A DNA stretch of 64,000 bases, taken from positions 77,622 to 141,621 of the forward strand of contig JACQWY010000002.1 in NCBI GenBank assembly GCA_016209015.1. Direction: 5' to 3'. The notes beneath the pieces are model-generated. The model saw nothing but the letters and a program-made list of their open reading frames with translations, had not been told where the DNA came from and ran no database searches. Both the position numbers and the translations under genes were made by a program. This document shows positions 14,995-61,884 of the stretch, piece by piece. The first letter of the stretch is position 1, and the number at the start of each line of letters is the position of its first letter. Source of the DNA: Gammaproteobacteria bacterium (GTDB taxonomy: Bacteria; Pseudomonadota; Gammaproteobacteria; Ga0077536).

Positions 14995-15194
14995 GTCATT
15001 TCCTTGTACGTGTGAGAGGGGATCGCGGCGCACGGAGCAGACGTCCGGTGGGCGCCGCCGTCAGGATACCAACGTTGCGACCGCTCGAATCTCGAGGGCG
15101 CTCGAGCCGACGACGCGGTCCGATCGGGCGTTGCCCGGTGGCCGCGGCGTGCGGCACCGGAACGCGGGCACTGCGCCCGCGTTCCGGAACCTCG

Positions 15195-26144: not shown

Positions 26145-26438
26145 TCGGGCGACGCCGCCGCCCGGGTGAGGCGCGGCCATGGCCCTGGACTTCGTCCGCC
26201 GGCCCGGCAAGCACGCAGCGCCTGCGTCTCCCGCCATGATCGAAGAGGCTCACAGGTGAGGAAGCTCTGAGTACGTTCAGCGCTTCCCTAAGGCGTCCGC
26301 GAGCTCATCGACGGCAACCCGCCTCCCCATTCCGCCGCCTTCACCGCCCCGCTATGCTCTCTGTGCGCACGGAACGCGGGCCCGCCATTCACCGTGCGTC
26401 CGCGCCGTGCCTTTCACCACACCCGAGGGGAGGCAGCG

Positions 26439-51526: not shown

Positions 51527-51776
51527 GTCGTCCGGTCATTGTGCCGCGCTTGGCGGGAAGCAGCATCCGAGAGAGAGATGAATTTGGGCGATGGTCCCGG
51601 GTTCGACAGGGCTGCCGCGGGCCAGCGACCGGGTCCCGGTCCCGGCCTCCGCCGGGAGGGTCCCTGCCCCGGGACGACGGGCCGCGATCGATGCGCCTCC
51701 TGCGCCGGCGCATCCGATAAACTCGCGGCGGTCACACGCGCGGTGCAGGATCGCGCCGGCACCCCGAGGAGCATTC

Positions 51777-53438
51777 ATGTCCGAAGAGTTCCCTTCCGCC
51801 CTCTCCCGCCGCGAATTCCTGAAACGCGCCGGCGCCTCGGGCGTCGCGGTCGCCGCGGGCACGTTCGGCCGTGCCGCGGCCGGCGCGGGCGGCGGCACGC
51901 CCGAGCAGGTGCATCTCACCTGGGGTGCGGATCCGTCGAGCGAAGTCGTCGTCTCCTGGTGCACGGTCGAAGCGGCCGTGAGTCCGCGCGTGCACTACGG
52001 GCCGACGCCCGCGCTCGGCAGGATCGTGCCTGCCGAAACGCGGCGCTACGTCGATGGTCTGAGCGGCGAAACGGTGATCTGCCATCACGCGCGGCTCAGC
52101 GGTCTGGCGCCCGCTTCGACCGTGCATTACGCCGTGACGGCGGACAACGACGCGAAGCAGGATCGGCCCTTCGCCGCCGGGTTCGTCACCGCGCCGCGCG
52201 AGCGCCGCGGCTTCCGCTTCACGAGCTACGGCGATCTCGCGACGCCGAACACGCAGTGGACGATTTCATCCCCGCAGGCCCGGCATGCGATCGTCGCGGT
52301 CGAGCGTTTCGCGCCGCTGTTCCATCTGCTGAACGGCGATCTCTGCTACGCGAACCTGAATCCGGCGGCGCAGCCCGCGGTGTGGCGCGACTTCGGCGAC
52401 AACGTCGAGCCGTCCGCCGCGCGCCGGCCGTGGATGCCCTGTCCCGGCAATCACGAGATCGAGTTCAACAACGGCGCGCAGGGCTACGGCGGCTATCTCG
52501 CGCGTTACGAGCTGCCCGCGAACGGCACGCGCTTTCCCGGGCGCTGGTATGCGTTCCGCGTCGGCGGCGTGCTGTTCGTCTCGCTCGATGCGAACGACGT
52601 CGTCCACCAGGACTGCGGGCCGCTCGTGAACGGTCCGCGCCCGCTCGTGCCCGCCCTCAATGCAGGCCAGCCGCCGATCGCCCCCGGCACCGCGCTCTAC
52701 GTCCGCGGCTAAAGCGGCGGCGAGCAGACGCGCTGGCTCGAGCAGACGCTGCGCGCCGCGCGCGCCGACGCGGGTCTCGACTGGATCGTCGTGCAGATGC
52801 ACGAGGACGCGATGAGCTCCTCCGATCCCGGCAACGGCTCGGACAAGGGCATCCGCGAAGCCTGGCTGCCGCTCTTCGACACATACGGCGTCGACCTCGT
52901 GCTGTGCGGCCACGATCACGACTACGAGCGCACGTTCCCGGTCCGCGGCCGTCATCACGACACGGGGCGCGACGTGGCAACGGGCGAGCCCGTCGACACG
53001 CTGCAGCCGATCCCGCTCGTCAGGGAGGACCCGGCGGACGGCGTATACGACTCACCGCAGGGCGCGATCCATCTCGTGCTCGGCGGCGGCGGTACGGGCG
53101 CACCGCTCGGCGTCTACGGCCGCGATCCGCAATCCGGCGCGCCGCTCGCGAAAGTCTTCACGAAGCGCAACGCGCCGCGGCCCGGTGCGAAGCCCGGCAC
53201 GTTCATGCGTGCCAAAGCGGATGCGGTGGAAGCGGCAATCTGGTCGGCGCGCCGCGACACGGAGAGCGCTTACGGTATCGCGGTCTTCGACGTGCATTAC
53301 GACGAGACGCCGGGCATGACGTCGATCACCCTGAGCTACTGGCACACAGTCGGCGCCGTGCCGACGGGCGATTACGAGCTCTTCGAGAAGATCGTGTTGC
53401 GGAAGAAGCGCAAGGACGCTCTTCGCAACTCGTCGTAG
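51777..53438 (+). pseudogene. Purple acid phosphatase/metallophosphoesterase with Tat signal, interrupted by a single in-frame TAA (52710-52712). Possible pseudogene or sequence error.
   Basis: ATG at 51777 is preceded by CCGAGGAG. Tat motif: SRREFLKRAG. PAP motifs: GDLCYAN, GNHE, GHDHDYER. ORFs 51591..52712 and 52791..53438 are in the same frame. The sequence reads continuously across the TAA: YVRG*SGGEQTRWLEQTL. Confidence 0.5.
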
Positions 53439-53489
53439 GTCCGTAGCCGCGGGCGTAATCGGACGTTCGATTCGCCTTCGGCCCGGCGC

Positions 53490-54845: not shown

Positions 54846-55304
54846 ATGGAGGACGAAACCATGATATATCGATCCCTGTTCCCCGGCGACGTGTTCGCCG
54901 AAATCGATCGCCTGCGCCGTGACATGCAGGAGAGCTTCGATTATTCGCCCAGCATCCGCGGCATCGGCCGCGGCGGTTTTCCCGCCATGAACGTCGGCGG
55001 CTCGCCGCAATCGATCGAGATCTATGCGTTCATGCCGGGCGTCGACCCGGCCCAGGTCGAGGTCCAGATCGAGAACGGCGTGCTGACGATTTCCGGTGAG
55101 CGCAAATCCGATCTGCCGACGGACAAGACCCAGCGCTCCGACGTGCACATCGCCGAACGATTCACGGGCCGCTTCAGGCGCGTCGTGACGCTGACGGAGG
55201 ACGCCGATCCGGACGCCGTGAACGCGGTGTATCGCGACGGCGTGCTCCACATCAGCATCCAGCGCCGCGCCGCGGCCCAGCCGCGCCGCATCAGCATCCA
55301 GTGA
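54846..55304 (+). CDS. Hsp20/alpha-crystallin small heat-shock protein (copy 1)
   Basis: ATG at 54846 is preceded by AAAGGA. The alpha-crystallin domain (IEIYAFMPGVDPAQVEVQIENGVLTISGER...FTGRFRRVVTL...DAVNAVYRDGVLHI) shows the A..G.L motif. Confidence 0.8.
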   Translation: MEDETMIYRSLFPGDVFAEIDRLRRDMQESFDYSPSIRGIGRGGFPAMNVGGSPQSIEIYAFMPGVDPAQVEVQIENGVLTISGERKSDLPTDKTQRSDVHIAERFTGRFRRVVTLTEDADPDAVNAVYRDGVLHISIQRRAAAQPRRISIQ

Positions 55305-55321
55305 GTCGAGGAGGTGACACC

Positions 55322-55702
55322 ATGAACGAGACGAAGCCCAGCACGAACGAGCAGCGCAACACCCGCCCCGAGGCGGCGATCCTGCCGCCCGTCGACGTCA
55401 TCGAAGATAAATCGGGCATTACGCTGATCGCCGATCTGCCCGGTGTGGCGAAAGAGAACATGCACGTGCGGCTCGAAGCGGACACGCTGACGATCGAGGG
55501 TGAAGTGACGCTCAACCTCCCGCAGGGAACGGAGGCGACGCACGCCGAGGTCAACCTGCCGCGTTACCGCCGCGCGTTCACGCTCTCCAAGGAGCTCGAC
55601 AGCGAGCAGGTGCGCGCCGAGTTCACGCACGGCGTGCTCAAGCTCCACATCCCGAAGGCCGCGCACGCCCAGCCGCGCAAGGTGGATGTCCACGTCGGAT
55701 GA
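55322..55702 (+). CDS. Hsp20/alpha-crystallin small heat-shock protein (copy 2)
   Basis: ATG (MNETKP) is preceded by GAGGAGG. ITLIADLPGVAKENMHVRLEADTLTIEGE...AEFTHGVLKLHIPK. Confidence 0.8.
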   Translation: MNETKPSTNEQRNTRPEAAILPPVDVIEDKSGITLIADLPGVAKENMHVRLEADTLTIEGEVTLNLPQGTEATHAEVNLPRYRRAFTLSKELDSEQVRAEFTHGVLKLHIPKAAHAQPRKVDVHVG

Positions 55703-55710
55703 GAAGGGGT

Positions 55711-55836
55711 CTGACGCGTGTGGGTAACTCGCAGCAAGCGAGTTATCCACGCGGGTCATACCCCGGCTTCCCGAGCGCCGAACGAAGGGCGCGCCGGCCG
55801 CCGAACACCGCGATCGATGCGCCTCCTTCGTCGGCA
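55711..55836 (+). repeat. Copy 1 of a ~100-bp conserved intergenic element that starts immediately after a stop codon and includes a CCTCCT block
   Basis: Conserved blocks are shared with 61353..61453 in reverse orientation: CTGACGCGTGTGG; GCGGGTCATACCCCGGCTTCC-GAGCGCCGAACGAAGGG; CGATCGATGCGCCTCCTTCGTCGGCA. This copy also carries an extra palindrome, GTGGGTAACTCGC-AGCAA-GCGAGTTATCCAC. Confidence 0.5.
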
Positions 55837-55890
55837 TCCTATAGGCCAAAACTCCGGACCGCCGCTGCGGTCGATGCAGGAGGTCATGCC

Positions 55891-56391
55891 ATGACATTCG
55901 AGAATCTGAAAGAGAATCTCAGCTCGCTGTGGGATTCGGTGGCCGAGGGCTGGCAGCACCTCGCGCAGTCCGCGAACAGTGCGCTGACGCGGTTCAAGCC
56001 CGGCGCCGAAATGCCGGACAAGCGCGAAGTGGACGATACGTGGTATCTGCCCACCCGCGGGTGGGCGATGCTCGGCGGCGATGTCTTCGAGGATACCGCC
56101 CGCATCGTGGTCCGCCTCGAAGTGCCGGGTCTGCAGAAGCAGGATCTCAGGCTCGAGATCGAAGACAACGCGCTCGTCGTCAGTGGTGAGAAACGCTTCG
56201 AGCGCGAGAGCACGCAGGGGCGCTGGCGCGTGATGCAATGCGCGTACGGCAGCTTCCGCCGCGTCGTGCCGCTGCCGGCGAGCGTCGCGCCCGAACAGGC
56301 GAAAGCGAGTTACCGGGAAGGCGTGTTGCGCGTGGAGATACCGAAGCTCCGGCAGGCCGCGCCCGAGGGCCGGACGATACCCATCGACTGA
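55891..56391 (+). CDS. Hsp20/alpha-crystallin small heat-shock protein (copy 3)
   Basis: ATG at 55891 is preceded by GCAGGAGG. IVVRLEVPGLQKQDLRLEIEDNALVVSGEKR...GSFRRVVPLP...ASYREGVLRVEIPK. Confidence 0.8.
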   Translation: MTFENLKENLSSLWDSVAEGWQHLAQSANSALTRFKPGAEMPDKREVDDTWYLPTRGWAMLGGDVFEDTARIVVRLEVPGLQKQDLRLEIEDNALVVSGEKRFERESTQGRWRVMQCAYGSFRRVVPLPASVAPEQAKASYREGVLRVEIPKLRQAAPEGRTIPID

Positions 56392-56518
56392 CTTTCGGCC
56401 GCCCCGGAACAGAGCCGGAGTCCGAATGCGTCGGACTCCGGCTCCGACCCGGCAGCGTGTGCCGTCTCCGTCGCTGCGCGATGCCGGGCTTCGGATGACG
56501 CCCGAGGAGCCGCGGCGA

Positions 56519-60609: not shown

Positions 60610-61047
60610 GTGGCGAACCAGGGCACGCTCGTCGACGGCACGCACAGCGCGGCCGTCGGCTACGTGCTCTGGATCTTCGGCTTCATGGGCGCGCACCGTT
60701 TCTACTTCGGACGGCCGGTGAGCGGGACGATCTATTTCTTCACGCTCGGACTCTTCCTCATCGGCTGGATCGCGGATCTGTTCCTGATGCCGGGCCTCGA
60801 GGCCGCCGCGGATCAACGCTACGCCGCCGGCCGCTACAGCTTCACCCTGGCCTGGGTGCTGCTCATCTTCCTCGGGCTCTTCGGCGCCCACCGCTTCTAT
60901 CTCGGCAAATGGCTCACCGGCCTGCTCTGGCTCTGCACCGGCGGTCTCTTCCTCGCCGGGTGGCTCTATGATCTGTGGACGCTGAACGGGCAGGTCGATG
61001 CCCTGAATCGCGAGCACGGACGGACGCTGCGATATTCGAGTCTGTGA
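60610..61047 (+). CDS. TM2-domain membrane protein
   Basis: GTG start. A duplicated G.HRFY.G motif (GAHRFYFGRP; GAHRFYLGKW) is characteristic of TM2/NINE domains. Confidence 0.6.
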   Translation: MANQGTLVDGTHSAAVGYVLWIFGFMGAHRFYFGRPVSGTIYFFTLGLFLIGWIADLFLMPGLEAAADQRYAAGRYSFTLAWVLLIFLGLFGAHRFYLGKWLTGLLWLCTGGLFLAGWLYDLWTLNGQVDALNREHGRTLRYSSL

Positions 61048-61063
61048 TCTCTCCGATCAGCCG

Positions 61064-61306
61064 CAGGCGTAATCGGACGTTTCTTCGCGGGTTGCACGGC
61101 ATCGATCCCCTTACTCGCGGCCCGGGAACCGAAGAATTCATCCGATTACGCCGGCGCTAAGGAAGCTCTGAACAAGTTCAGAGCTTCCGGCGGCACAGGG
61201 ATGTGCCGCCGTGAACAGTGGCGTAAGCCATTGTTCACGTAAGGTTGGCAAGAACCACGCTTCTTGCCGACCGTGCTCTGAAAAGTCCAGGATGTCCAGG
61301 ATGGAC
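61064..61306. ncRNA. Candidate structured RNA / REP-array: six consecutive perfect or near-perfect hairpins filling a convergent intergenic region
   Basis: GGCGTAATCGGA...TCCGATTACGCC (61064-61140). GGAAGCTCTGAAC-AA-GTTCAGAGCTTCC (61161-61188). GGCGGCACA-GGGA-TGTGCCGCC (61189-61210). GTGAACAGTGGC-GTAA-GCCATTGTTCAC, with a GNRA loop and a G-U pair (61211-61238). GTTGGCAAGAA-CCACGC-TTCTTGCCGAC (61244-61271). GTCCAGGATGTCCAGGATGGAC (61285-61306). Local GC is reduced. Coding status of the two overlapping track ORFs is rejected. Confidence 0.3.
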
Positions 61307-61352
61307 TTATTGAGAGCTTCCCTAACGGTACCTACGAAGCGCTCATGGGACG

Positions 61353-61453
61353 TGCCGACGCAGGAGGCGCACCGATCGCGGGGCGACGTTCCGGAGATCC
61401 CTTCGTTCGGCGCTCTGGAAGCCGGGGTATGACCCCGGCGCCACACGCGTCAG
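61353..61453 (-). repeat. Copy 2 (reverse orientation) of the ~100-bp conserved element; contains hairpin GCCGGGGTCATACCCCGGC
   Basis: It shares three conserved blocks with 55711..55836. As in copy 1, it begins with the stop codon of the upstream minus-strand gene inside CTGACGCGTGTGG. Confidence 0.5.
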
Positions 61454-61884
61454 CCCCCGGCACCCGCACACGGCGGCACGACCGCGATCCCCACGGTGGC
61501 GAAGATCAACGCGAGCATGAAGCCCGCGCTCGCCATCATGCCGCACACCGCGAGGAAGCGCGTGCGGCCTTCGCCGGCATCGAGCAGGTGATGGGCGGAG
61601 CCGGCGGCTTCTTCGCGCGTCGCGCGCCAGCCGAGCCAGGCGACGACGAAGGCGGCGACGGTGACCGCGAGCGCCATGACGTCGACCGCGGCGAGCGCGC
61701 TGTGGAGCGTCCGGGCGTCGAGCGCGTAGCGCGCGCCGTTGCAGGTGACGCCGGTCACGGCATAGCTCGCGGTGAGCTGGAACGCCCAGGCGAGCGGTGC
61801 TGCGAAGAGACCGAAAGCGAGCGCGCCGCGGCCGTAACGTTCGCGATGCGGCGCAGGATGGGAGGAACCGAGCAGCGTGTTCAT
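61450..61884 (-). CDS. Small membrane protein (144 aa) downstream of coxIII; possible cytochrome oxidase accessory or subunit IV-like protein
   Basis: Start MNTLLGSS at 61884. The complement of ATG was verified. It lies 5 nt after the coxIII stop. Three predicted TM helices. I recognise no family. Confidence 0.4.
   Translation of the reverse strand: MNTLLGSSHPAPHRERYGRGALAFGLFAAPLAWAFQLTASYAVTGVTCNGARYALDARTLHSALAAVDVMALAVTVAAFVVAWLGWRATREEAAGSAHHLLDAGEGRTRFLAVCGMMASAGFMLALIFATVGIAVVPPCAGAGG

Follow-up and report, generated by a model that had tools for sequence, protein, structure and literature searches.

The window analyzed here is a 64-kb stretch of contig JACQWY010000002.1 from a Gammaproteobacteria bacterium (assembly GCA_016209015.1); the closest public genome is the metagenome-assembled genome (MAG) GCA_016218315.1. 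At 61048-61449, the window contains a spacer between two convergent genes, a TM2-domain gene on the plus strand (60610-61047; Pfam TM2, E=1e-29) and a gene for a 144-aa protein on the minus strand (61450-61884), the last gene of a COX2-COX1-COX3 operon; the stops of these two genes lie at 61047 and 61450, respectively. Within this spacer lies a 161-bp block of five abutting hairpins bounded by inverted ends and direct CTAA repeats. It represents a new family of miniature inverted-repeat transposable elements (MITEs) within the IS5 group; literature searches for the end sequence and for Xanthomonas IS5 MITEs turned up no account of such a family. The GC content of the spacer is 61%, compared with 68% for the window, in agreement with the first-pass annotation, which had noted the lower GC content of this region. 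The same annotation considered two open reading frames (ORFs) in the spacer to be without coding signal, and this judgment holds: neither has a Pfam match, and both cross a 178-bp stretch, not a multiple of three in length, that near-identical strains lack. A terminator scan detected no T-run terminators on either strand of the spacer, and a promoter scan detected no sigma-70-like promoters in it.

Ends and target-site duplication of the element

The block begins with GGAAGCTCTGAACAAG and ends with CTTATTGAGAGCTTCC, and CTAA stands immediately outside both ends; the context reads GCG CTAA (GGAAGC...GCTTCC) CTAA CGG (Table 1). Because the CTAA repeat is direct and not inverted, it represents a duplication of the target and not an extension of the ends. 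IS5 in the Escherichia coli chromosome is bounded in the same manner, running from GGAAGGTGCGAACAAGTCC to CTTATTCGCACCTTCC between two CTAA tetramers. A blastn search of the element against plasmids reached plasmid 1 of Nitrobacter hamburgensis, in which CTAA is followed by GGAAGCTCTGAACAAC, 46 nt upstream of the start codon of an annotated IS5-family transposase. That insertion sequence (IS) then led to ISXfu1, a named IS (PMC3826837). In Xanthomonas phaseoli, ISXfu1 runs from GGAAACTCTGAACAATCC to GCATTGATCAGACCATCC between CTAA tetramers (its right end was also compared as TTGATCAGACCATCC), and the ISXfu1 and IS5 transposases are 56% identical. The left end of the element, GGAAGCTCTGAACAAG, is identical at 15 of 16 positions to the Nitrobacter plasmid end, at 14 of 16 to the left end of ISXfu1, and at 13 of 16 to that of IS5. 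The similarity reaches inward of the right terminal repeat: the reverse complement of the loop of the fifth hairpin (H5), TCCATCCTG, aligns with the subterminal sequences TCCGTCCTG of ISXfu1 and GTCCCTGA of IS5. The block is non-coding, and its length of 161 bp is below the limit of approximately 300 bp for MITEs. Since its ends and its CTAA duplication match those of IS5 and ISXfu1, the element falls within the definition of an IS5-group MITE. An IS5-family DDE transposase acting in trans, most like that of ISXfu1, would recognize both GGAAGCTCTGAAYAAG-type ends and would insert the unit at a YTAR tetranucleotide, duplicating that site.

The site without the element

Four relatives (L001, L003, L004, and L005; fetched loci are designated by L numbers) carry no array at this site. 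L001 and L003, which are 97-99.8% identical to the window, lack exactly 61146-61323 (178 bp), and L004 and L005 (~94% identical) lack the array and keep the flank up to the junction GGCGCT/GAAC. In L002, which is 100% identical to the window, the contig ends inside the first hairpin (H1). The insertion is recent, as strains as close as L001 and L003 are without it. When we deleted 61161-61325, namely, the block and one CTAA, the resulting sequence was ATCCGATTACGCCGGCGCTAACGGTACCTAC, with a single CTAA retained. This reconstructed empty site is the reverse complement of the consensus of a repetitive extragenic palindromic (REP)-like unit with a GTAG head, and it matches the intact inverted REP of L026; the junction of a clean empty site would read GCGCTAACGG. 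Removal of the element therefore restores an intact REP, indicating that an inverted REP unit was already present and that its CTAA served as the insertion target. The filled and empty alleles come from samples with adjacent accessions (SRR12113406 and SRR12113407), which are taken to belong to one study, and the locus offers a clean filled-versus-empty case of a MITE entering a REP within one natural population. Overall, we consider it very likely that 61161-61321 is an IS5-group MITE that was inserted into a REP-like palindrome by an IS5-family transposase supplied in trans.

Table 1 Features of the convergent spacer, in coordinates of the window. H1 to H5, hairpins of the element; REPIN, REP doublet forming a hairpin.
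Feature	Position	Strand	Remarks
161-bp non-autonomous IS5-group element (MITE)	61161-61321	+	Sense, by definition, runs from H1 to H5
Left terminal inverted repeat GGAAGCTCTGAACAAG	61161-61176	+	Compared with the Nitrobacter, ISXfu1, and IS5 left ends
Right terminal inverted repeat	61306-61321	-	From the tip inward, GGAAGCTCTCAATAAG
Target-site duplication CTAA, left copy	61157-61160	.	Same CTAA around IS5 and ISXfu1
Target-site duplication CTAA, right copy	61322-61325	.	Same CTAA around IS5 and ISXfu1
H1	61161-61188	+	13-bp perfect palindrome: left end plus inverted extra copy of left end (inverted-repeat search)
H2	61188-61211	+	10-bp perfect stem; loop ACAGGGAUGU
H3	61210-61239	+	13-bp stem with one G-T; GTAA loop
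H4	61243-61272	+	12-bp stem with one T-G; loop CCACGC
H5	61275-61317	+	Composite hairpin; 3' arm formed by the inner segment of the right end; loop with CAGGAUG
Tandem duplication, 2 x GTCCAGGAT	61285-61302	+	Within the H5 loop; specific to the window copy
REP-like unit, forward, degenerate GTAG head ..TCCGATCAGCCGCAGGCGTAATCGGAC	61046-61078	+	Fits consensus GTAGGTCCGATTAGCCGCAGGCGTAATCGGAC
REPIN-like long-range hairpin of two inverted REP-like units	61066-61152	+	12-bp outer stem 61066-61077/61141-61152; z=-4.4
Inverted REP-like unit split by the MITE, left half	61139-61160	-	Empty-site reconstruction
Split inverted REP-like unit, right half CGGTACCTAC	61326-61335	-	Reverse complement begins GTAGGTACCG
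Third dispersed module, unrelated	61336-61449	-	Core GCAGGAGGCGCACCGATCGCGG at 61360-61381
8-bp hairpin within the third module	61421-61439	.	Directly follows the 144-aa gene stop (inverted-repeat search)

Five hairpins retained through compensatory changes

The plus strand of the spacer folded with a predicted energy of -206 kcal/mol, compared with -153 ± 6 kcal/mol in shuffled sequences (z=-9.2); the z value was -8.6 for the minus strand and -11.8 for the block 61161-61321 alone. A scan of the whole window for perfect stems of at least 9 bp with loops of 2-8 nt gave only 11 matches, two of them in this region. The first-pass annotation had described six consecutive hairpins ending at 61306 and filling almost the entire spacer. 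We found five abutting local hairpins at 61161-61317 in an array that reaches approximately 61320, with hairpins covering ~63% of the spacer; what had been taken as the first local hairpin is really the long-range pairing of the REP-like pair. Other parts of that description were correct: the stems of H1-H4 are 10-13 bp long and perfect or near-perfect (9-13 bp, perfect or with G-U pairs, had been stated), a GUAA loop is present in H3, and each of the five hairpins differs from the others in sequence. The 5' arm of H5 is itself end-like and pairs with the inner part of the right end. Owing to the tandem duplication of GTCCAGGAT, the window copy carries a 9-nt insertion that none of the other eight copies in the alignment has.

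To compare structures, we aligned nine full copies of the element, representing three subfamilies; these are transposed copies and not syntenic orthologues. H1 is invariant across the nine, whereas H2-H4 have entirely different stem sequences between subfamilies with the pairing kept. RNAalifold predicted 54 pairs, 18 of which show compensatory change; this number was 10.7 ± 1.9 in shuffled alignments and was reached by none of 500 shuffles, and controls in which the partner was slid gave 3-8 compensatory pairs. Among the cells counted, 93% were paired, compared with 81% in the shuffles. Compensatory change was seen in 5 of 10 pairs of H3 and in 8 of 12 pairs of H4, in which 100% of the cells are paired. 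The loops are better conserved than the stems: H2 retains CAGG(G)A in all subfamilies despite the change of its stem, H4 carries YCACRC, and H5 carries CAGGAUG or CAUGGAUG. These results show that the five-hairpin design is kept across subfamilies through compensatory stem changes. Unconserved stems without compensatory change, which the first-pass annotation had named as the finding that would speak against a structured region, were thus not what we observed; the stems covary among transposed copies, so the array may have a structural role. The question that this raises is whether structure in a non-autonomous transposon is selected by RNA function, by transposase binding, or by palindrome maintenance at the DNA level.

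Copies, target sites, and stop codons

In total, we found 13 copies, 11 of them complete, in approximately 10 uncultured Gammaproteobacteria assemblies; they fall into at least three subfamilies, and two MAGs hold three copies each. When one genome per species was scanned with a first-hairpin pattern, 11 loci were obtained from uncultured Gammaproteobacteria or Pseudomonadota MAGs, one Lysobacteraceae MAG, and one Rhodanobacteraceae MAG; eight of these loci have the multi-hairpin unit (two cut by a contig end), and three have H1 alone. A metagenome scan added two further copies, and a protein search with a peptide read through the element returned two clusters and two further copies, one of which is in a Chromatiales MAG. 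Viral scans with the H1 and H5 patterns detected no copies of the element, and a viral scan with a generic end pattern gave a single match, an unrelated 89-bp MITE. The copies lie at unrelated sites (L006-L011, L015, L016, L018, L019, L028, and L030). Perfect 4-bp direct repeats flank 5 of the 11 complete copies (CTAA, TTAA, CTAG, CTAG, and CTAA), and the flanking tetramers of the remaining complete copies are YTAR-like with one or two differences.

The window itself holds one full copy and one solo H1 copy. The latter, at 26260-26287 between two plus-strand genes, reads GGAAGCTCTGAGTACGTTCAGCGCTTCC followed by CTAA, and H1 is also found alone in L012, L013, and L014. A solo H1 could be the remnant of recombination between the 3' arm of H1 and the right end, which have up to 12 nt in common.

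Copies are often located on stop codons (6 of the 13 adjoin one) because YTAR contains TAA or TAG, and such tetramers are rare inside the genes of a 68% GC genome. In L009, L018, L008, and L011, the TAA or TAG of the upstream gene forms the last three bases of the left duplication, and in L015 (410-562), each of two convergent genes terminates precisely at one of the duplications, with the element making up the whole spacer. In L010 (592-744), a 469-codon frame on the opposite strand enters the element for approximately 45 codons and stops in its left end, acquiring a C-terminal tail encoded by the MITE. The duplication would restore the stop codon after insertion. The family thereby illustrates how a YTAR target steers insertions onto stops in GC-rich genomes and leaves the genes undestroyed.

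Assessment of the transposon and of other explanations

Several observations weigh against a trans-mobilized MITE. No IS5-family transposase was found when the transposases of IS5, ISXfu1, and the Nitrobacter element were used in tblastn searches against the window and ~200 kb of fetched loci, and the partner transposase is therefore one that we infer; MAG assemblies usually drop IS copies. The IS that lies beside the L028 copy belongs to another IS5 subgroup, with ends that do not match those of the MITE; it is a two-ORF IS5-family element (L028 286-1024; DUF4096 + DDE_Tnp_1) with the ends GGGCCTGTTGATC, 2 kb from the MITE copy. The identity of the flanking tetramers is weakly informative by itself, both being constrained to YTAR, and in the empty alleles of L001 and L003, 13 nt of the flank are missing as well. 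Their allele could be either an imprecise excision, with a scar taking 15 + 2 flank bases, or an independent 13-nt deletion in the REP loop. Finally, conservation of internal hairpins and loops would not be expected of a pure MITE in which only the ends matter.

Two readings that treat the array as native to the spacer or as a REP cluster fare poorly. REP-like GTAG palindromes do occur on either side of the array and elsewhere, which would fit a cluster of REPs or bacterial interspersed mosaic elements (BIMEs) mobilized by a REP-associated tyrosine transposase. However, the five hairpins have no sequence in common with REP units or with one another, none of them begins with GTAG, and they always travel together as a single unit, enclosed by DDE-type inverted ends and flanked by a direct duplication of 4 bp, a manner in which, to our knowledge, REPs do not move; we regard this explanation as scarcely probable. 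The BIME-like array suggested in the first-pass annotation is accordingly right in pointing to a dispersed, mobile extragenic repeat with flanking REPs and wrong for the array itself, which is not a REP or BIME. Hardly any more credence attaches to a stand-alone small RNA (sRNA) gene native to the spacer, as a distant member of the ivy-DE or Rsm families. Rfam was run in E-value mode on the region and four other copies and in gathering mode on the whole window. The region gave matches to ivy-DE (RF02999; 35.4 bits, E=4e-5, over H1-H2) and RsmW (RF02809; 24 bits, E=0.028), which are below the gathering scores of 41.4 and 52, respectively; the four other copies gave no match, and no gathering-level match was obtained across the window. 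The CsrA-like appearance of H2 and H5 accounts for these weak RsmW and ivy-DE matches. The ivy-DE RNA is a 92-nt sRNA that has been reported only from pseudomonads (bioRxiv 10.64898/2026.09.16.751967). The sequence is also missing from the orthologous spacer of the four relatives, the array occurs at unrelated sites elsewhere, and the spacer contains none of the promoter-like or terminator-like sites searched for. The small RNA of the first-pass annotation is thus not supported as a locus-specific one, and its multi-terminator insulator is not borne out either, given that neither strand has T-run terminators. The analysis removes two spurious ORFs from the spacer, and a striking structure need no longer be mistaken for an sRNA or an insulator in annotation.

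A role of the hairpins in RNA would be additive to the MITE, and we regard it as possible, although doubtful, that the five hairpins of this mobile element act in transcripts by blocking 3' exonucleases or by stalling or terminating transcription, effects that have been described for REP, ERIC, and Correia elements. In every subfamily, all internal stems are preserved by compensatory changes. In addition, in each of the 11 copies tested, the predicted fold of the sense strand is more stable than that of the antisense strand, by 1-12 kcal/mol; the predicted folds of nine copies hold 16 G-U pairs in sense compared with one in antisense; and both imperfect pairs of the window copy are G-U on the plus strand. 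Six copies lie in sense after the upstream gene, four of them (L009, L018, L008, and L011) with the gene ending exactly at the left end. By contrast, L010 and L028 are antisense between co-directional genes, L019, L007, and L030 adjoin gene starts, and no hairpin is followed by a T-run terminator on either strand. DNA palindromes can, moreover, keep their complementarity via templated repair within the hairpin in the absence of selection. We did not accept the orientation bias as proof of RNA function because the sample is small and includes the counter-examples L010 and L028.

A more specific proposal is a portable CsrA/RsmA-binding module, in which the loops of H2 (ACAGGGAUGU) and H5 (CAGGAUG, duplicated in the window) present GGA, so that an insertion would place the host mRNA under Csr/Rsm control or enlarge a decoy pool. 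The H2 loop matches 11 of 12 positions of RUACARGGAUGU, which we take to be the high-affinity CsrA consensus, and H5 carries CAGGAUG, presumably of the CsrB type. All subfamilies retain the GGA loops on stems of differing sequence, and the weak RsmW match points in the same direction. Nevertheless, that match is far below its gathering score and is confined to the window copy, there are only two or three sites per copy, and several copies are antisense to the surrounding genes. Furthermore, ISXfu1 and IS5 have a subterminal motif in common (TCCRTCCTG or GTCCCTGA) whose reverse complement makes up the H5 loop, which indicates that the GGA of this loop was inherited from an IS end. We therefore consider such a binding module very improbable. 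The features of a Csr/Rsm decoy sRNA are likewise lacking, with two or three GGA loops and no promoter or terminator found. It is also very improbable that the interior of the MITE is a selected RNA module that brings two CsrA/RsmA-type GGA hairpins and stabilizing stem-loops to the 3' ends of genes; if this were so, uncultured Gammaproteobacteria would possess a mobile cassette for post-transcriptional regulation that lands on stop codons. At the window locus, the effect of the MITE is most likely neutral. At most, it provides the TM2 transcript with a block of stable stem-loops in its 3' untranslated part and, in antisense orientation, does the same for the cox operon transcript.

Flanking repeats and other features of the window

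The REP-like units follow the GTAG consensus GTAGGTNCGATTAGCCGCAGGCGTAATCGNAC, and further copies are present at 53435-53464 of the window and in L004 (4259-4321), L026 (827-929), and L027. Their arms change in compensation (TCCGA/TCGGA, TCGGA/TCCGA, and TACGA/TCGTA), and the 3' arm TCCGATTGCGCT of L004 preserves the REPIN-like pairing as G-U on the plus strand. The units stand immediately behind stop codons, either alone, in tandem (L004), or paired in inverted orientation.

The remainder of the spacer, beyond the right half of the split REP-like unit, belongs to a third dispersed repeat. Its 22-nt core, GCAGGAGGCGCAYCGATCGCGG, occurs three times in the window (51682-51703, 55808-55829, and 61360-61381), compared with 0.04 occurrences expected. 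The spacer module was aligned with 55690-55900, 51600-51790, and L004; L004 and L005 retain the core, and L026 does not. The other two core copies are opposite in orientation, and each precedes a gene by 77-86 nt, one of these genes encoding a metallophosphatase and the other being the third of three HSP20 genes, whereas the spacer copy is directed towards the MITE with no gene behind it. The copies at 55.7 kb and 61.4 kb have ~100 nt in common, including a variable inserted hairpin. The core may serve as an operator or promoter, or it may be a further mobile module. A sigma-32 promoter was considered for this repeat and rejected because the -10-like TCCCAT/CCTAT, as judged by eye, has no matching -35. 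Gene calls mapped from L003 place the three HSP20 small heat-shock genes in a row beside an HtrA-like protease gene at ~54867-56394. The two longest other perfect hairpins of the window are at 56412-56444 (14-bp stem), just after the third HSP20 gene, and at 15157-15187 (13-bp stem).

Comparison with known systems

The closest known relatives of the element are the insertion sequences of the IS5 group, namely, IS5 and the ISXfu1 of Xanthomonas fuscans/phaseoli, and the MITEs derived from them. They have in common the terminal type GGAAG(G/C)TCTGAAYAAGTCC and, in the IS5 and ISXfu1 copies examined, a 4-bp YTAR duplication, CTAA. ISXfu1 also resembles the element in its left/right asymmetry, as seen when the right end of subfamily C, TTGATCAGACCTTCC, is set beside TTGATCAGACCATCC of ISXfu1. 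Unlike ISXfu1, the element has no transposase gene, and its interior is unrelated. Two other MITEs have IS5/ISXfu1-type ends, CTAA duplications, and unrelated interiors: a 151-bp MITE on X. perforans plasmid CP077786 (L023 2506-2656) and the 89-bp MITE on an IMG/VR contig (L021 7514-7602). Both fold as a single long hairpin closed by the ends (z about -5.7), whereas the element described here folds each end locally, as H1 and H5, with three covarying hairpins between them. The five-hairpin design is therefore particular to the family of the window element.

The flanking units resemble REP, BIME, and REPIN systems in being extragenic palindromes with a GTAG head, in the form of 30-nt imperfect palindromes that include an inverted pair. 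The array differs from those systems in the absence of a GTAG head, in its five different hairpins, in its DDE-type ends, and in its direct duplication. Among structured RNAs, ivy-DE and RsmW share tandem hairpins with the array; the loop of the second hairpin of ivy-DE, ACAGGGA, resembles that of H2, and RsmW has GGA loops. The array differs from both in its sub-gathering scores, with only the window copy scoring, and ivy-DE has been reported only from pseudomonads.

Small structured repeats of other bacteria provide a further comparison, namely, the Correia elements of Neisseria, the enterobacterial repetitive intergenic consensus (ERIC; also intergenic repeat unit, IRU) of enterobacteria, the repeat unit of pneumococcus (RUP), and the pneumococcal BOX elements. 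None of them is related to the element in sequence, and their parent transposases are other ones, with a TA duplication for Correia and RUP. Effects at the RNA level have been shown by experiment for these repeats, whereas for the window element they are hypothetical. All of them are nevertheless non-coding, dispersed repeats of 100-200 bp that lie in untranslated regions and form stable RNA folds. They vary between strains in presence and absence, as the element does, and BOX is also modular with conserved end modules.

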